Positions 2,794-38,347 of a stretch of 64,000 nucleotides of DNA are shown here, piece by piece (within the stretch, counting starts at the first letter, position 1; the number at the start of each line of letters is the position of its first letter). A program made the translations under genes and the position numbers. Under the pieces are notes generated by a model. That model did not search any database. It had not been told where the DNA came from and was given only the letters and a program-made list of their open reading frames with translations. The stretch is from a virus (Duplodnaviria > Heunggongvirae > Uroviricota > Caudoviricetes), in the IMG/VR virus record IMGVR_UViG_3300014204_000001, positions 10,011-74,010 of that record; one strand, 5' to 3'.

Positions 2794-5353
2794 GGCTGCC
2801 CCAGGTAGGCTCGATGAGAAGGTAGTCCAGATAGAGGACGTGCACGCCGTCCACGTCTCCCGAGTTAACGCGGATATAGGGTTGGAGTTTGGTGCCTGCC
2901 GCGGGTACGTCTGTGGTGTTACGTCCAACTTCCTTGTCGCCTATAAAGAATTTTGCCAGGCCAGACGTGAGTTCGATACGCCATACAGTGCTACCGTTGA
3001 TAACAGTCACCCCGCTATCCACGGTTGTTTCGCCGATATTTACGCAGTGGCACTTTATGTTAGGGTCGGTATTACTCAGATAAAAGCGAGCGCACGCAGA
3101 TCCTTCTACGTCCAAAAAGCCTGCCTCAATGTCGTACACTCCATTGAGGGGGTTATACCCCATAGAGGTCTCGAGCACGAGTTTGGTGGGGTTCGCGGCG
3201 CTTCCGCCAGGCATTGGGAGCGTCCAGACGTCATTCCCACTAAGTAGCGCATAGCCACCGATATCAGTCCCTGGATCTAACAGAAGACTCCCGTCATTAG
3301 CGAGTGCGTAGGTGGTTGCAGCGCCAGTTCCGCTGGTTACGAGGGTCAACTCCCCAACAGTATCGTCTCGAAAGTGATTGAGGTAGCTGAGGCCGTTATG
3401 AGCAGGCAGCAGCCGCGGATATTCGACGCGCATGTCGGAGATCGTACAACGATTAACAGTAACACCCGTCTGACAGTAGGTAACCGTGAACGTGTGTTTA
3501 CCTGCGCCAGCGAACACACGGACATCGTGTACTGTTTTGTCCACGGGGAAGACATAACTGTGGACGGACACGCCATCACAGTAAACGTAGAAACCGTCAC
3601 CAGCATTTGCGAGCTTGATGTCAAGCTCGAGGACAAGATAACCCGCTTTGGCAAAGACAGCATCCCACTGGAGGCCTGCCACGTTGGCCAGTGCGAGATT
3701 ATCCACTTGAAGCGCGTTGCCATCGTACGCCCACGCGCCGGTTGAAGGCCCATACTCCGGGAGGGCCAGTCCAATATCCATCTGACTATTTGAAAACGGT
3801 GCTTTTTGGATCTCGGTCACAGGACCAATAGGGATAATGCGGTCCAGTTTGTCCTTGTCCGCAAGGGCCATGAAGCCCGCGGCCATACTCGTAGCCTCTG
3901 CGTGAAGCAGACCGCCTGTCAGATTCCCATGCGCGTGTACATGGTCCGTGCGCGCCAGGGTGAGGGCCACACCGGGGGCTGCCACCCCTAGGTTCTCTGG
4001 ATCACTCAGGTTCGTTGGCAGATCGGCGATAAGGTGGCTGTGACTCGCTGCAGCCTTGTCCGTATCGAGCTCATTGATCGCCGCCTGCACAGTCGTCGCA
4101 GACACTCCACCTGCTGGCGTGTTGGCGATTTTCGTGGCTGCGATGGCCGCAGTGTCAGAAACTTGCGTATTCGTAATTGAGCCCGCTAGAAGCTTCGACG
4201 CGGCGATGTTTGCATCTGACGAGATATGGTTGTCCTCGATGACGTCCAAGGCCAGTGTGTGAACATGATCACTGGCGGAGTACGTACGCGCCGTGCCAGC
4301 TACTGCAACGGTAGCGACACTCTGAGGGGCCACCGTGGAAGCGGTCAGGCTGTTGACCTGGACGACACTCGTGGCACCCGGCGGAAGGGCTACTCCATTG
4401 AGGAGGTGCAGCACCCCACCCTGGACTCGGGCGATGGGGATCGCCAAGGGCGCCTTCTCCGGGTTGAGGCGCACAACGAAGAGGTTGCCGTCACAGTTGG
4501 CACCAGTCTCAGGTGCATCTGCAATAGCTTGGCGCCGGCCACCTTGGGTGGGCAGGGTAAGGGCGCCGTAGTAGATGGCAAGAACGTCACCCTCAAGGAG
4601 ACGGCAAGCTGCATCCGCGTCGAAGAACGCAGCAAGCCCTGCCGCAGTGAGCGTGTGCTGCTCCGCCTCGAGCGCGCCAGACAGTGCACCGGAGGTGATG
4701 CCCACGGTGGTCAGGACGCCTGCGCCTGCTTCTCCAGCAACCAGGTCAGCGCTTAGGCCAAGCGTGACACAGACAGCACTGGCATTGACGGCGTCGATTA
4801 GAGCCTGCCGGGTAGTTCCAGTGACAGCCGTGGAGTCGTAGGTGATCTGGACATTGTCCAGGGGGTCACCCTCGACCGTCACGGCGAGCGCAGCACCAGC
4901 GGAGCCGACGAGATCGACGGTGATCTTGTTTGCGCCGCTGTAGGCGCGCGGCGGTGTTTCGCCGCCAACGCGCGAGGTGACAGTGGAGAACTTGACGCCG
5001 AGCAGTGTAGCCGTTGCTGGGGTGGTTACCGCCGGCGCGAGGAAGGGGCGGATGGTCAGCTCGGCCTCAGGCTCAAGGATGAGGCAGCCCGAGTTGAGCA
5101 CACCAGGGTCATACACCCCAACCCAGGAGACGGAGCCCGTGGCAGTCATCAGGAGCGCGCGGTCAGCGTCGGCGAGGTACTTGTTGTCCTCAAGTTCGCG
5201 TCGTACCGTTTCAGTGCGCTCACGGACAATGTCGAGGGGCCGATTGAAGATGGCCGCGTTTCCACGCTCACCATCTTCGTATGGTTGAACCGACGCCAGG
5301 TTGTCCTCGCCGGAGTCATTCGGGGTTTCGAAGTCGACGTTTTGGTTAGCCAT
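2786..5353 (-). CDS. Tail fibre / receptor-binding protein
   Basis: 855 aa, Ala/Thr/Gly-rich, repeated DHVH/HSH motifs, distal to the baseplate genes. Confidence 0.75.
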   Translation of the reverse strand: MANQNVDFETPNDSGEDNLASVQPYEDGERGNAAIFNRPLDIVRERTETVRRELEDNKYLADADRALLMTATGSVSWVGVYDPGVLNSGCLILEPEAELTIRPFLAPAVTTPATATLLGVKFSTVTSRVGGETPPRAYSGANKITVDLVGSAGAALAVTVEGDPLDNVQITYDSTAVTGTTRQALIDAVNASAVCVTLGLSADLVAGEAGAGVLTTVGITSGALSGALEAEQHTLTAAGLAAFFDADAACRLLEGDVLAIYYGALTLPTQGGRRQAIADAPETGANCDGNLFVVRLNPEKAPLAIPIARVQGGVLHLLNGVALPPGATSVVQVNSLTASTVAPQSVATVAVAGTARTYSASDHVHTLALDVIEDNHISSDANIAASKLLAGSITNTQVSDTAAIAATKIANTPAGGVSATTVQAAINELDTDKAAASHSHLIADLPTNLSDPENLGVAAPGVALTLARTDHVHAHGNLTGGLLHAEATSMAAGFMALADKDKLDRIIPIGPVTEIQKAPFSNSQMDIGLALPEYGPSTGAWAYDGNALQVDNLALANVAGLQWDAVFAKAGYLVLELDIKLANAGDGFYVYCDGVSVHSYVFPVDKTVHDVRVFAGAGKHTFTVTYCQTGVTVNRCTISDMRVEYPRLLPAHNGLSYLNHFRDDTVGELTLVTSGTGAATTYALANDGSLLLDPGTDIGGYALLSGNDVWTLPMPGGSAANPTKLVLETSMGYNPLNGVYDIEAGFLDVEGSACARFYLSNTDPNIKCHCVNIGETTVDSGVTVINGSTVWRIELTSGLAKFFIGDKEVGRNTTDVPAAGTKLQPYIRVNSGDVDGVHVLYLDYLLIEPTWGSRG

Positions 5354-5898: not shown

Positions 5899-7929
5899 TT
5901 AGGCAGCTGCTCGAGGAGTTACAGAGAGCACGTGTTCGAGGACGGCACTGGAAGCCTCTTCTATATACGGGTTGAGACCTCCGATGACGAGGTTTACGCC
6001 GATACCTGGTGACACGAGTGCGCCCCCATGGGCTTCAGCATAACCCATCTCGCCGCCAATGAAGACATCGTTACCGATGCAGAAGTGATTATCACAAAGG
6101 AAGAGAGGATCCTGCAGAGTGCGCCGCGCAGTGTTGCTAAGGACGTCAACCAGCGAGATATTTTCCTCGAACTGCGTGAATGGCCGGAAGTATACCATCG
6201 TGTGCGCAGGCTTAACCTCGCGCACCAACTGCTGAAGGTCGTTGATGATCACGCCCGTCATGTCGATGGACGGGTCAATGTTCACCATGAACAGGTGCAT
6301 CTTCAGGACACGATCAAGTAGGATGAATGAGGCTCGGTGTCTGACGGGGTACTCCGTGACGAATCCGTCCTCGTCGGCTCCGATGTACAGCCCGGGATCC
6401 CCGATGTTGAAGTCGCCACCAGGCCCCATTTGGTTCGGGTACAGGGTAGGTGACACAATGCGGCGGGGGTATTCCTGTTCAGGAAGCAACTCCTGCGGAA
6501 TGGTGATGTGGTGCCACCACTCGGGATCCTCGAGGTAGTCGGTGACCTGAACTGCCGTTGTCAGAGGCTCGAAGGCTCGCAGCGTCAGCTTATCGAAGTT
6601 CGCAGGGTCTTTGACATCGTCACGCACTGGTATTGCTCGCGGGTATGCATATGTGCGCGCGCTTGTGATCACTCGCTGCAAGCCGTCATAGGAGAATTCC
6701 CAGGCGATGTAACCCACGTCATCGGCGAAGGATCCCGTTGTGCGGTGGATTCGAATGCGCTGGGGGTCGATGTACTCAGTGACAGTGAACGTACCCAAAT
6801 TCGCCGCTAGGGTTGCATTCTTGATGCTGAGCAGGCCTCCGACGTAGTTGGGTAGGAACGTCGTCGCGGCGGAATAGAGAATCGTAGTATCCGCGTCGGA
6901 GCTTTCGAGGCTGGAGCCACTCGCGATGTTGATTAGCCCAGAGTCATAGCCTAGAACGGTCTCGGAGTCATCTCTCGCGACCTCCAGGTTGGCGACCACG
7001 TTGAGCGCACTTTCGACGCGCTCGATGGCAGGACCAAAGGTGTACAACTGCATCAGGCCGCGAATGAACGCTCGATAGGCTTCAGTCGAGCGCTGTTTGT
7101 CGCCGAAGAGGTAGCCAAAGGTTTCGAATAGCCGGCCATCGTCGACTTCCACGTCGACAGCCCAGAACGCAAGCTCGTAAACCTCGAGCGTGGTCGTGCG
7201 ATCCAACGTTCCGTCGTACGTATTTCGTTCGGCAACTAGCTTACGTTCGCCCTTAGAGTAGCGGCGCATCAACTTCCAGGTGTAGGCCTCGGCCATGTTC
7301 GCGGCTTGCGGCGGAACGGTGGGCAGGGGTGTGTCGCGAGAAATGGCAACGCGGCCGGGCGCGACGTGTACGACCTTGAGTGTGGTGTAGGGTGCTCCTG
7401 GCTGCGAGAGGTACAACTCTAGCTCGTCACCAGGCTGTGCATCGTCGAGCCCAGGACTCACGACGAAACCGGACACCGCGACCGTGAGTTGCCTGCGAGC
7501 AAACGCTTGGGTCTCTTCCGCATCAAAGGGGTTTGCGACGAAGCCGATATTGCCATCAATGATCTCGTAATCCACCCCTTGTTCCAACGCAGCAGTGGCG
7601 GAGAACACCTTGTTTTGAAGCTGTGGCACTCGATTGATCGGCTCAGTTGGATAGTAGACATACCGGTTCTGAAGTGGGATGTCTGTGGCGTAATAGACGA
7701 GCTGATCCTGGCGGATCGTGTAGAGTTTGTAGTACTCCTTGCGGAACAGCGGAGTCTCGGTCACCGCGATGTTCAGCACGTCGTTCAGTAGGTTGAGGTA
7801 ATGCTGTCCCAGGAGGATCTCAGTCCCCTCGTAGATACCCTGGATGTCGCCGATATCCTTGAAGTAGCGCAGCCAGAAATCGGACAAGCCATGGAGCAGC
7901 GTATCAGCGTCATTTCCGATCAGGGCCAT
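5899..7929 (-). CDS. Baseplate wedge protein
   Basis: 676 aa immediately downstream of the baseplate J-like gene. Confidence 0.6.
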   Translation of the reverse strand: MALIGNDADTLLHGLSDFWLRYFKDIGDIQGIYEGTEILLGQHYLNLLNDVLNIAVTETPLFRKEYYKLYTIRQDQLVYYATDIPLQNRYVYYPTEPINRVPQLQNKVFSATAALEQGVDYEIIDGNIGFVANPFDAEETQAFARRQLTVAVSGFVVSPGLDDAQPGDELELYLSQPGAPYTTLKVVHVAPGRVAISRDTPLPTVPPQAANMAEAYTWKLMRRYSKGERKLVAERNTYDGTLDRTTTLEVYELAFWAVDVEVDDGRLFETFGYLFGDKQRSTEAYRAFIRGLMQLYTFGPAIERVESALNVVANLEVARDDSETVLGYDSGLINIASGSSLESSDADTTILYSAATTFLPNYVGGLLSIKNATLAANLGTFTVTEYIDPQRIRIHRTTGSFADDVGYIAWEFSYDGLQRVITSARTYAYPRAIPVRDDVKDPANFDKLTLRAFEPLTTAVQVTDYLEDPEWWHHITIPQELLPEQEYPRRIVSPTLYPNQMGPGGDFNIGDPGLYIGADEDGFVTEYPVRHRASFILLDRVLKMHLFMVNIDPSIDMTGVIINDLQQLVREVKPAHTMVYFRPFTQFEENISLVDVLSNTARRTLQDPLFLCDNHFCIGNDVFIGGEMGYAEAHGGALVSPGIGVNLVIGGLNPYIEEASSAVLEHVLSVTPRAAA

Positions 7930-35158: not shown

Positions 35159-35386
35159 ATGAGTGTTAGAGCAAAGATGCAGTGCATCACAGTCAAGGAT
35201 GATGAGAACAATCCTGGGCAGAAGTTGGTGAGTCTCTACGCCGTCTACGAGGACGGTGAAGCCAACAAGGAATGGTCGAAGTTCACGCCTTGGGGTGAGG
35301 TGACGCTCGCCATCACCAACCCGGAGGCCTTCAATCAGTTCGTTCAGGGCAAGGTCTACTACGTCGACTTCACCGAGGCCGAGTAG
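35159..35386 (+). CDS. Small conserved phage protein
   Basis: VRAKM.C...EN..WSK.TP.G...I.NPEA..F..GK.YYVDF. Confidence 0.75.
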   Translation: MSVRAKMQCITVKDDENNPGQKLVSLYAVYEDGEANKEWSKFTPWGEVTLAITNPEAFNQFVQGKVYYVDFTEAE

Positions 35387-35397
35387 CACTCATTCAA

Positions 35398-35435
35398 AAG
35401 AAGCACGGCACGAAGTTTCTCATGCCGTGCTTCTT
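35398..35435. terminator. Bidirectional terminator / processing hairpin before the tRNAs
   Basis: 13-bp perfect stem AAGAAGCACGGCA/TGCCGTGCTTCTT. Confidence 0.65.
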
Positions 35436-35440
35436 CTCAT

Positions 35441-35513
35441 TGAGGCGTAGCTCAACTGGTAGAGCACCGGACTTTGACTCCGGGTGTTGAGGGTTCAACT
35501 CCTTCCGCCTCAG
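35441..35513 (+). tRNA. tRNA-Gln(UUG), CCA not encoded
   Basis: Acceptor TGAGGCG/CGCCTCA, D-arm GCTC/GAGC, anticodon CCGGA-CTTTGAC-TCCGG, T-loop TTCAACT. Confidence 0.92.
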
Positions 35514-35530
35514 CTTCTTTACGGAGTAAC

Positions 35531-35603
35531 GCCGACGTAGCGCAGTTGGTAGCGCATCTGCCTTGTAAGCAGAGGGTCCCCGGTTCGAATCCGGGCGTCG
35601 GCT
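35531..35603 (+). tRNA. tRNA-Thr(UGU), CCA not encoded
   Basis: Acceptor GCCGACG/CGTCGGC, anticodon TCTGC-CTTGTAA-GCAGA, T-loop TTCGAAT. Confidence 0.93.
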
Positions 35604-35639
35604 AAGGTATAAGGATTACACCCTACTCAGGAGGTTATC

Positions 35640-35723
35640 ATGATCTTGTTCGAGCCTTTGTGGGCGCTCTCATTGGTAGCACTGGTGGTTACGGCTCTAT
35701 GGGTGTGGCCTGACGAATCATAA
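35640..35723 (+). CDS. 27-aa single-TM peptide
   Basis: GGAGG RBS; MILFEPLWALSLVALVVTALWVWPDES. Confidence 0.5.
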   Translation: MILFEPLWALSLVALVVTALWVWPDES

Positions 35724-35745
35724 AAAAGACGCTATTAACCAAAGG

Positions 35746-35986
35746 ATGCGCACGACCACCTACTTCGGATTCGCCATCGCTGATTCGATGTTCCCCGAGA
35801 ACTGCTCCGCCCACCGCCACGCGCGTGGACGTCACCCCGTGCATCAACCCATCTCATAAGGCGACCATCGACGTGCTCAAGGAGCGCTTCGGTGTCGTGG
35901 TGCCCATTCCGAAGGCGCCGCCTATCGTGCAACTGCTCGAGGGCGACGCCATCATCGTGACGGCTGTCAACAGTACGAATACGTGA
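35746..35986 (+). pseudogene. Broken gene resembling the STIV B116 / DUF1874-like small phage family
   Basis: MRTTYFGFAIADSMF in one frame and PCINPSHKATIDVLKERFGV.V.IP..PPIVQL..GD.IIV in another; assignment from memory of the family. Confidence 0.5.
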
Positions 35987-36459
35987 CGATGCGGAAGCAC
36001 AGTGCCATCGAGGACGAGTTCGCGCTGAAGATGCAGCAGAAGAACCGCGAGCTGACCCAGCGGGTGGAACTGCTTACCGCGCGTGAGACGCACATGAGCG
36101 ACCTGGAGAAGCAGGTCTCCGAGATGCCAGTTCTGATCGAGAAGGCGGAGAAGAAGGGCGTCGCCATCGCCGAGGGGCGCCTGACCAAGGAGTTCGAGCA
36201 CCGGATTCAGCTGCTGGAGATGACGGCGGCGAACGACGCCAAGGTTGCGGCGCAGAACGCTGCCTCGCTCAGCGCCAACATTGCGCATCAGGCACTGCAG
36301 ATCGAGGCCATGAGGACCGACCTCACGGCGGCCAACCTGCGCGCCGAGACCATCGCGGCCAAGGCGCTTGAGGCCAGCAGTGGCCAACAGGCGCTCGCCG
36401 TGGCGATGCAGTCCGCTGCCAACCGCGATAACGGGCTTGGCAACGGCAAGCGCACCTAG
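35983..36459 (+). CDS. Coiled-coil hypothetical protein (possibly 5' truncated)
   Basis: 158-aa helical ORF with no clear RBS. Confidence 0.65.
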   Translation: MTMRKHSAIEDEFALKMQQKNRELTQRVELLTARETHMSDLEKQVSEMPVLIEKAEKKGVAIAEGRLTKEFEHRIQLLEMTAANDAKVAAQNAASLSANIAHQALQIEAMRTDLTAANLRAETIAAKALEASSGQQALAVAMQSAANRDNGLGNGKRT

Positions 36460-36505
36460 TACACTGCAATCGTAATGCTGGGAACAGGGTTCTGTTCCCA
36501 GTTTC

Positions 36506-36865
36506 GGGGCTGATCTGGTTTCGACGAGGGAAGAAACAGTTGAGATGCGAGCCGTGGAAGTCTGCTAGGCCACGTAAAATCCTGCGGACAAATTCAAACG
36601 CCAACGACAACATCAATGTGTTCGCGCGTCAGCTGGCCGTGGCCTAAACCACCACACCAGCGAGTTCTCGATGGTCTAACCGATCTCAGGGTAGTTGAGA
36701 GCTAACTTATCTGGGAGACCCTCAATCACGGCGGCGCCAGCTTGTAACGTGATTGCGATGGCAGGCTAAAGGGCGTTTGTAGCACCCCGCCTCGGGTAGA
36801 GGCTACGCTCGTAGTATCTTTTCAGGATCAACCTCCGGACGAGGGTTCGATCCCCTCCAGCTCCA
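36506..36865 (+). ncRNA. ssrA: tmRNA
   Basis: 5' GGGGCTGATCTGGTTTCGAC, 3' GGTTCGATCCCCTCCAGCTCCA, G3:U70 pair, tag ORF ANDNINVFARQLAVA* at 36600-36647. Confidence 0.95.
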
Positions 36866-36866
36866 C

Positions 36867-37038
36867 TGGAACAGTACAGTAGCGTATCAAAGGCCCCGCC
36901 TAAAAGCGAAGCAAGTGCTACCGTGTAGGCATACACGTTAAAGTGTTGGGTCCGGGTTGCGCCTAGCACCACAGGGGTCTGACGTCGTGAGACTGTAGCC
37001 GCTCGGGCGACGCGATACCGTCCAACTGTACTGTTCCA
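36867..37038 (+). ncRNA. Putative structured ncRNA of unknown family
   Basis: 14-bp closing stem plus three nested stems and a GNRA hairpin; no credible ORF; strand assumed from neighbours. Confidence 0.55.
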
Positions 37039-37109
37039 CTTCCTCGTGCGTAAGCACGGGTGGTGGAAGGCCGGGAAAGTCGGAACTCTCCGACTTTCCC
37101 TTCGCCCCT

Positions 37110-37141
37110 GGAGGCTGGCAATTCTGCCAGCCTCCTTTTTT
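37110..37141 (+). terminator. Rho-independent terminator
   Basis: GGAGGCTGGCA/TGCCAGCCTCC followed by T6. Confidence 0.85.
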
Positions 37142-37159
37142 AGGTTCATAGGAGAGGTC

Positions 37160-38347
37160 ATGTCTATTTCGAAGATGGAGGGACAGAACGTACCCGTCTT
37201 GCTATGGGCACCGCTGCATGAAGTAGAGTCGGAAGCGCTCACGCAGTTGCGTAACGTGGCAAACCTGCCCTCAGTCCGATACGTGCGCGCGATGCCTGAT
37301 GTGCACACAGGGTTCGGTGTCCCTGTTGGAAGCGTCGTAGCCCTGAAAGACGCCGTATCGCCAGGAATTGTTGGTGTCGACATCGGGTGCGGCATGCGCG
37401 CCCTGCGCACCTCGCTTCGCGAAGAGATGCTTCCCAAGGACCTCAAGGCGCTGCGGCTGCGCATCGAGGAGTTCATTCCTGCAGGGACTGGCTGTGCGCA
37501 TGCGTCTACTGATCACGTGAAGGGTGATAACGTCTACGACGAACTCTGGGAGCGTGTGAAGCAGACACGTCAGGCCAAATGCTCGCTCGAGAAAGCGCAG
37601 CGCCAGATGGGTACGCTTGGGTCTGGTAATCACTTTATCGAGGTGTGCGCCGACACGGATGGGTTCGTCTGGCTCATGTTGCATTCAGGCTCGCGTAATT
37701 TCGGCAAGGAGGTTGCTGAGAGCTATACCCATCTGGCAGAGGCGCATCCGGTTAACCGAGACCTCCCTGACAAGCGCGTCGCGGTGTTCCCGTGTGAGTC
37801 CCCTGACTTCGCGGACTACTGGCGGGACATGCAGACGGCACAGATGTACGCTGAGCTGAACCGCCATCTGATGATGCAGCTGCTGGGCCTGTCCTTTGAG
37901 TCGATGCACCTGGAGACAGGGCACGTTGGCCCTTCGATCAGTTGCCACCACAACTACGCCATCGAGGAAGAAATCAATGGCGAGAAACTGATCGTCGCCC
38001 GCAAGGGTGCCATTGAAGCTCGCGAGGGTCAGTGGGGTATCATTCCGGGTGCAATGGGGCGCAAATCGTTCATCGTCCAAGGGCTCGGCAACGAAGAGAG
38101 CCTCATGTCCGCCAGCCACGGGGCTGGACGCAGGATGAGCCGGTCAAAGGCGAATAAGACGTTTACCGTCGAGGATCTGAAGGAGTCAACGAAGGGCGTC
38201 GAGTGCTTCATTGGGAAAGGAGTTCTCGACGAGATCGCGATGGCCTACAAAGACATCGCGGTCGTCATGCAGAACCAAGTGGACCTCGTCGTGCCGAAGT
38301 ACGAGCTCCATGCCTTGATCACAGTCAAGGGCCACAACGAGCACTGA
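37160..38347 (+). CDS. rtcB: RtcB RNA ligase
   Basis: MPDVHTG.G.PVG, GVDIGCG, GTLGSGNHF.E, MLHSGSR, HHNY, RKGA, SHGAGR, YKDI. Confidence 0.96.
   Translation: MSISKMEGQNVPVLLWAPLHEVESEALTQLRNVANLPSVRYVRAMPDVHTGFGVPVGSVVALKDAVSPGIVGVDIGCGMRALRTSLREEMLPKDLKALRLRIEEFIPAGTGCAHASTDHVKGDNVYDELWERVKQTRQAKCSLEKAQRQMGTLGSGNHFIEVCADTDGFVWLMLHSGSRNFGKEVAESYTHLAEAHPVNRDLPDKRVAVFPCESPDFADYWRDMQTAQMYAELNRHLMMQLLGLSFESMHLETGHVGPSISCHHNYAIEEEINGEKLIVARKGAIEAREGQWGIIPGAMGRKSFIVQGLGNEESLMSASHGAGRRMSRSKANKTFTVEDLKESTKGVECFIGKGVLDEIAMAYKDIAVVMQNQVDLVVPKYELHALITVKGHNEH

Follow-up and report, generated by a model that had tools for sequence, protein, structure and literature searches.

The 14-bp inverted repeat that begins directly behind a phage tmRNA gene in the window (the whole 64-kb stretch of DNA analyzed here) is a real long stem, hereafter P1, with both statistical and comparative support. 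We tentatively favor, at a probability of roughly 40%, the hypothesis that P1 acts in cis within a tmRNA-rtcB co-transcript, as a long-range helix by which the intergenic spacer is looped out, and serves RNA processing or stability. An earlier, sequence-only reading of the same stretch (36867-37038, hereafter the element) had proposed a new non-coding RNA of about 170 nt built of nested stems; of this proposal the closing stem is supported, while the interior shows neither excess stability nor conservation of sequence or shape.

The window is part of a complete 179-kb genome of an uncultured phage, with direct terminal repeats, from a landfill metagenome. On the + strand, genes for a dNMP kinase and a dCMP deaminase are followed by tRNA-Gln, tRNA-Thr, a 158-aa coiled-coil ORF and the tmRNA, and then by the element, three hairpins and rtcB; a metallophosphoesterase gene lies nearby in this cluster of RNA genes and RNA-repair genes. 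The tmRNA (36506-36866, + strand; ARAGORN, and Rfam RF00023 at 131 bits) has the tag ANDNINVFARQLAVA and no encoded CCA, and its 3' end is placed at 36866 by ARAGORN and at 36868 by Rfam. A leader hairpin (CUGGGAACAG-GGUU-CUGUUCCCAG, 36478-36501, + strand) lies 4 nt 5' of it, and upstream of the tmRNA there is also a sigma-70-like promoter candidate (TTGGCA-17-TACACT, 36437-36465, + strand), called purely from its match to the consensus, which is the sole site of its kind within 35300-37300 and for which no counterpart was found in the related phage L001 (below). P1 consists of a 5' arm (UGGAACAGUACAGU, 36867-36880, + strand; from inverted-repeat search, folding and shuffles) and a 3' arm (ACUGUACUGUUCCA, 37025-37038, + strand), and it encloses a non-coding spacer of 144 nt (36881-37024, + strand) that holds the inner stems of the sequence-only reading. 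The last 5 nt of the 3' arm are common to the 5' arm of the hairpin H2 (37034-37068, + strand; lower stem UUCCAC/GUGGAA, upper stem CUCGUGC/GCACGGG, GUAA loop), which is followed by H3 (37073-37100, + strand; a perfect 12-bp stem with a 4-nt loop) and by an intrinsic terminator (37110-37141, + strand; an 11-bp G+C-rich stem, a 4-nt loop and T6). The terminator, the only one detected within 35300-37300, ends 8 nt 5' of the ribosome-binding site of rtcB (AGGAGAGG, 37150-37157) and 19 nt before its ATG; rtcB itself (37160-38347, + strand; PF01139, E = 4e-109) encodes an RNA 3'-phosphate/5'-OH ligase. Between the promoter candidate and the terminator we found no promoter-like site, and the contigs of a single DNA run that cover the stretch showed no variant and no joint. 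SmpB, RNase III and a CCA-adding enzyme were sought among the phage's own genes and none is encoded, so that processing would fall to host enzymes.

The outer stem was as described: TGGAACAGTACAGT (36867-36880) and ACTGTACTGTTCCA (37025-37038) are complementary over their full length without a mismatch, and the stem starts one base past the tmRNA 3' end given by ARAGORN (the Rfam end being 36868). None of 200 dinucleotide shuffles of 36866-37050 contained a helix that had 14 pairs and a span of 60 nt or more, and P1 is the sole perfect inverted repeat of at least 13 nt with arms more than 10 nt apart in the 64-kb window. The element is single-copy in the 179-kb genome and has no extended complementarity to the rest of it, and the arm-pair pattern found no match elsewhere in 185,579 species genomes and IMG/VR. 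When the element was folded alone, the ensemble pair probability exceeded 0.9 for P1 and for the inner stems GUAUC/GAUAC and GGCCCC/GGGGUC. P1 and H2 both need UUCCA in the window, and with the downstream sequence included the outer P1 pairs had a probability of 0.08-0.55.

The enclosed interior behaved differently from the outer stem. The four inner stems that had been proposed are indeed complementary and mutually nested; however, the idea of a specially folded RNA was not borne out by comparison with shuffled sequences, the interior (36881-37024) having z = +0.5, which is within the genomic background (mean -0.15, sd 0.83). The whole element folds at -70.1 kcal/mol (z = -3.2), and since P1 accounts for all of the excess folding energy, this z-score is no sign of a folded interior. 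A single long closing stem can be enough to make the folding z-score negative and to give rise to nested stems, which calls for caution with similar cases. Of the remaining inner stems, GUGCUA/UAGCAC had an ensemble probability of ~0 and the CGUGUA...UACACG hairpin one of ~0.38; the latter had been called a GNRA hairpin, but its GGCA loop falls outside GNRA because the third base is a pyrimidine. Folding of whole precursors by minimum free energy (MFE) missed even the tmRNA fold and was uninformative. The earlier statement that the element has no credible ORF held: the stretch is non-coding, with no ORF conserved with L001 in any frame. Coding potential on the opposite strand was considered as well and rejected, the 236-aa minus-strand ORF at 36766-37476 overlapping both the tmRNA and rtcB and not being conserved. 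The element shares its strand with the tmRNA and rtcB.

A counterpart of this arrangement was found in one phage only, L001, which has a record of 194 kb and an RtcB of 80% identity (L017 is the same phage and L018 an identical fragment of it). None of the homologue searches gave a further one: the RtcB protein and an RtcB alignment against IMG/VR, metagenome contigs and species genomes (185,579); the coiled-coil ORF that precedes the tmRNA against metagenome contigs and IMG/VR; DNA patterns from the tmRNA and H2 against IMG/VR; blastn and tblastn against GenBank phages; and a 5.8-billion-protein collection followed by contig retrieval. Another candidate (L008) was a chance match. The order in L001 is tmRNA (1804-2143), a 168-aa ORF (2170-2676; without a Pfam or PHROG match and absent from the window's genome), a stem-closed stretch of ~190 nt and, directly behind it, the same three hairpins and rtcB. 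Its closing stem, CUGCGAGAAGUUGAA / UUCAGCUUUUCGCAG (2690-2879), encloses ~160 nt and has 15 pairs including two G-U (18 with a bulge); none of 200 shuffles equaled the 15-bp stem, and the G-U pairs work in + strand RNA only. Adjacency to the tmRNA is therefore not a fixed feature: with an ORF between the tmRNA and the element in L001, the constant neighbor is the set of three hairpins, terminator and rtcB.

P1 starts 1 nt past the tmRNA in the window and 13 nt past the stop codon of the 168-aa ORF in L001, i.e., right after the upstream gene in both phages, so that the whole spacer is bracketed. The arms of the two stems are unrelated in sequence, and both stems end at the conserved H2. That is, what both phages keep is a long stem reaching from the upstream gene to H2, with pairing preserved and sequence changed, plus the H2-H3-terminator block. 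The four-fold sites of rtcB are 39% identical between the two (the tmRNAs 65%), which means that these sites are saturated and an unselected ancestral stem should be gone, yet both phages have a long stem. The two stems would be orthologous by position, with n = 2 and no support from alignment. Local alignment of the window with L001 found similarity from H2 onward only, the alignment score of the interiors had z ~1 against shuffles, and the tree-edit distance between their MFE shapes lay inside the shuffle distribution. Judged as a generic conserved structured RNA, the two cores have no excess stability (z = +0.5 in the window, -0.4 in L001) and unlike shapes, a comparison of two sequences that is MFE-based. 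The H2-H3-terminator block, in turn, had z = -11 in the window and -5 in L001, and a counterpart of the terminator is visible in L001; P1 and H2 scarcely overlap there. We also observed that each hairpin of the window's intergenic block is a perfect palindrome, and that the H3 site of L001 holds a shorter, 8-bp hairpin of other sequence, the window's H3 looking as if inserted into a simpler hairpin. Downstream of rtcB, L001 carries three tRNA-Ala genes and a tRNA-Val (4427-4969; 5535-6272 in L017), and then a DUF7873 gene.

The only strongly conserved intergenic sequence of the two phages is GGGUGGUGGA, in the 3' arm of H2 (37058-37067; 2912-2921 in L001); the genome has a second exact copy of it besides the one at H2. 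The sequence contains UGGUGGA, which is exactly complementary to UCCACCA-3', the 3' terminus of mature tmRNA and tRNA-Ala, and it also fits the two-tier G-quadruplex motif GG-U-GG-U-GG-A(A)-GG. Upstream of the tmRNA, the arms CUGGGAACAG and CUGUUCCCAG of the leader hairpin repeat the outer part of the P1 arms, and the inverted-repeat core GGAACAG...CTGTTCC occurs in the 179-kb genome at the leader and at P1 only (36478-36501; 36867-36874 / 37031-37039). Because of this repetition, the 3' arm of the leader can pair with the start of the trailer (CUGGAACAG; 9 pairs and one bulge), which would be the arrangement expected of a leader-trailer processing stalk. The leader of L001 likewise has 7-8-mers in common with the 5' arm of P1 and with the sequence after P1, again of other sequence, and in both phages a GUUUC that immediately precedes the tmRNA has a possible pairing partner, GGAAC or GAAAC, immediately behind it.

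The variable segment is also bracketed by direct repeats. In the window, TCCACT at 36862-36867 and 37035-37040 is a copy of the tmRNA 3' end; with the exact P1 boundaries there is no duplication, the 6-nt repeat appearing only when the boundaries are shifted. In L001, GCAGCTCCACT at 2134-2144 and 2876-2886 flanks the 168-aa ORF together with the element. Such repeats resemble the duplicated att sites of elements with tmRNA genes as their integration target. A third related phage (L019, a Logan contig) retains, at 7060-7150, the leader hairpin and ~15 nt from the 5' end of the tmRNA (GGGGCTGAATCGG), with a terminator immediately behind; the fetched locus lacks the tmRNA body, the element and rtcB, which suggests that the whole module was lost or replaced.

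Four more distant loci with RtcB 57-65% identical (L009-L012) have neither a tmRNA nor the element upstream of rtcB, and distant relatives without the element show clear TTGACA-17-TAnnnT promoters directly upstream of the gene. For instance, a strong sigma-70-type promoter abuts rtcB at 3430-3500 of L009 and 1320-1390 of L012, unlike in the window. Given these promoters in the relatives, and as its own upstream region suggests, the rtcB of the window may be reached by read-through from the tmRNA unit. The rtcB relatives of ~60% identity cluster with a cREC gene, a metallophosphoesterase gene is present in L009 and L011 as well, and one further locus (P0003) has 619 nt without a called gene upstream of rtcB.

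Under the favored hypothesis, tmRNA, spacer, H2, H3, terminator and rtcB would form one transcript started at the promoter upstream of the tmRNA, and P1 would join the first bases past the upstream gene to the last ones before H2, looping out the non-conserved spacer. The duplex of 14-18 bp could then act as a determinant of processing and/or stability, by cleavage or by protection: it may be cut by RNase III or another host nuclease specific for double strands or, alternatively, form a clamp that shields the new 5' end arising from tmRNA 3' processing together with the 3' end of the upstream RNA. H2, H3 and a leaky terminator would hold rtcB expression below that of the tmRNA, with some read-through of the terminator. 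Consistent with this hypothesis, the stem lies beyond 200 of 200 shuffles in both the window (14 bp) and L001 (15 bp, two G-U), it is kept and brackets the whole spacer in both phages despite the saturated divergence of rtcB, and the excess stability of the region is found in the H2-H3-terminator block, not in the interior. All genes are on the + strand, with a promoter-like site 5' of the tmRNA, a terminator 5' of rtcB and no promoter-like site between them, and the leader 3' arm is complementary to the trailer, with an inverted-repeat core found nowhere else in the genome. There are also precedents, as RNase III cuts the intercistronic rpsO-pnp site (PMC3082872) and separates rRNA precursors (PMC6144821). 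Against the hypothesis, the intercistronic sites known for RNase III are in most cases local hairpins rather than stems enclosing ~150 nt, a duplex of 14-18 bp is a short substrate for this enzyme, the phage has no RNase III of its own, and the orthology of the two stems is positional, in two phages. Further, the inverted repeats of the window (leader, P1, H3 and terminator) are all perfect, which could mean a recent origin at the DNA level instead of long-standing selection. If P1 is a processing or stability helix, high-output tmRNA would be coupled to a low-level RNA-repair ligase in one transcript, a reading that would be useful for the annotation of phage RNA-repair islands and is unsurprising.

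An origin at the DNA level is indeed a serious rival, which we rate as possible but on the unlikely side: the element would be a scar without RNA function, left by an insertion at the tmRNA 3' end, with inverted repeats and a short copy of the tmRNA end at its borders. The direct repeats that flank the variable segment (TCCACT in the window, GCAGCTCCACT in L001) fit such a history, as do the different content of the segment in the two phages (the 168-aa ORF missing in the window's genome), the plasticity of the locus in the third phage, which has just the leader hairpin and ~15 nt of tmRNA, and the combination of perfect inverted repeats with an interior like random sequence. However, the element is single-copy with arms that have no match in the 185,579 species genomes and IMG/VR, there is no transposase or integrase inside or next to it, and the 6- and 11-nt direct repeats could simply reflect H2 mimicking the tmRNA end. 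The G-U pairs of L001, moreover, favor pairing at the RNA level on the + strand, and both phages retain a long stem at saturated divergence. It is unlikely, in our view, that the element is instead a free-standing, stable phage RNA, which tRNA-type 3' processing would free from the tmRNA precursor, with its ends protected by P1 and the downstream hairpins, and acting as a nuclease decoy or as an RNA sealed or circularized by RtcB in a conflict over RNA damage. Its setting among two tRNAs, the tmRNA, rtcB and a nearby metallophosphoesterase gene would suit such a role; the first base of P1 is precisely the one that tmRNA 3' processing would leave as a 5' end, there is no ORF, the strongly structured 3' block ends in a terminator, and P1 puts both ends together, which is the geometry for end-joining. 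Yet an RNA that acts on its own is poorly matched by an interior that is unconserved in sequence and predicted shape and no more stable than shuffles, by the ORF that precedes the element in L001, and by the failure of ARAGORN and Rfam to find a ribozyme or tRNA-like motif that could provide RtcB-type ends; nor did the element show extended complementarity to other parts of the phage genome.

The conserved H2 strand raises the question of sensing. It is rather improbable that the region is a riboswitch- or T-box-type leader of rtcB in which the P1 3' arm pairs alternatively with H2, and UGGUGGA with UCCACCA, to set the read-through of the terminator. The terminator does lie directly 5' of the rtcB ribosome-binding site, P1 and H2 do compete for UUCCA in the window (outer P1 pairs at 0.08-0.55), the conserved GGGUGGUGGA holds the complement of the mature tmRNA and tRNA-Ala 3' end, and L001 has three tRNA-Ala genes right after rtcB. 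This complementarity is, however, automatic as far as the tmRNA end is concerned, because the 5' arm of H2 copies that end. In addition, no T-box or riboswitch model matched at E up to 10, inspection revealed no antiterminator pairing with the terminator, H3 sits between H2 and the terminator, P1 and H2 scarcely overlap in L001, and the interior that would have to be the aptamer is not conserved. A broader version, to which we give slightly more credit while still considering it doubtful, is that spacer, H2, H3 and terminator form either a new rtcB leader that reads Ala-type acceptor ends or a stable, P1-clamped and possibly RtcB-circularized RNA. In such a leader, the local copy of the tmRNA end (CUCCAC) and P1 would be competitors of the UGGUGGA pairing, and expression of the RNA ligase would be coupled to damage or availability of tmRNA and tRNA-Ala. 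If the RNA were stable, or if the H2 strand sensed tmRNA or tRNA-Ala ends, the locus would represent an RNA-based regulator or decoy in the arms race over tRNA nucleases between phages and hosts.

Known RNA families offered no better explanation. In agreement with the absence of an assignment in the sequence-only reading, on either strand of the element no Rfam 15 family matched, whether the cut-off was the gathering score or an E-value of 10, and the element of L001 gave chance-level matches only at E up to 10. A divergent Y RNA of the YrlA type or a 6S RNA would fit the length of ~170 nt, the long closing stem and a proximity to rtcB like that of the rsr-yrlBA-rtcBA operons (PMC4201824). However, a TROVE/Ro60 gene (PF05731) is present in neither complete phage genome, that of the window or of L001, whereas Deinococcus and Bacteroides controls were detected. 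The YrlA model RF02553, run over the whole genome, matched the two tRNAs only (at 21 and 14 bits, where the cut-off is 69) and nothing at 36867-37038. The T-loop that the earlier reading had failed to see was not found in the element by ARAGORN or by the Rfam tRNA-clan models (E up to 10) either, which leaves no tRNA-like domain, and its doubts about 6S RNA were borne out by the lack of a 6S-family match at E up to 10 and by a fold that is a branched junction and not a rod with a central bubble. With no Ro60, no YrlA match, no tRNA-like gene and no Rfam match, we reject Y RNA and 6S RNA, which we consider extremely improbable. Other candidates were rejected as well: hammerhead, twister and other ribozymes (no Rfam match); a tRNA-like RNA (no acceptor or T-arm, with ARAGORN and the tRNA model negative); a retron RNA (no adjacent reverse-transcriptase gene, the next gene being rtcB); an integron attC site (core sites that misfit); and an antisense RNA against phage genes (no complementarity in the genome). 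A MITE or other small mobile inverted-repeat element is disfavored by the single copy, with the arm pair unmatched in the species genomes and IMG/VR, and a T-box or riboswitch by the lack of an Rfam match, an interior that is not conserved, and a competition that involves P1 and H2 and not the terminator.

It is useful to compare the element with known systems that share some of its traits. The YrlA and other bacterial Y RNAs (RF02553; Chen et al. 2014, PMC4201824) have in common with it a long stem formed by the ends, a size of ~100-200 nt and the proximity to rtcB, whereas here the phage has no Ro60 partner, and the element has no tRNA-like D/T module and no match to the covariance model. 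T-box leaders, too, are terminator-bearing and precede a gene related to translation or RNA, and they have a conserved GGGUGGU-containing strand complementary to the tRNA 3' end, as here. In contrast to them, the element has no identified Stem I or specifier and no Rfam match to the T-box model, its conserved strand is on the 3' side of a separate hairpin and not in an antiterminator bulge, and its seven-nt complementarity needs the acceptor stem to be opened.

Integrative elements target the 3' ends of tRNA and tmRNA genes and leave a duplicated gene end. The locus resembles them in its variable segment directly after the tmRNA and in its short repeat of the tmRNA end (6 nt; 11 nt in L001), and differs in having no integrase, a tiny segment (172 nt; ~730 nt in L001), a position inside a phage genome and very short repeats. 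Species 1 and 2 of phage T4 (rnaC and rnaD) are stable RNAs of unknown function at the end of a tRNA cluster. They are phage non-coding RNAs that share a transcript with tRNA-type genes and are freed from it by the enzymes of tRNA processing, which is where the likeness to the element would lie; their stability has been demonstrated, whereas the element is known as DNA sequence and its interior is not conserved.

Sites in the early region of phage T7 are RNase III processing sites. The closest likeness, in line with the cis-acting helix that we favor, is to RNase III processing helices such as those of rpsO-pnp (PMC3082872) and the rRNA stalks (PMC6144821). P1 differs from these in enclosing ~150 nt of apparently functionless spacer rather than a mature RNA or a small loop, and in being a helix of 14-18 bp only that is seen here through its sequence. 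Like them, however, it would be formed from the flanks or separators of units in one transcript, is free in sequence while its pairing is kept, has a stable-RNA gene on one side and a protein gene on the other, and is accompanied by complementarity of leader and trailer around the stable RNA.
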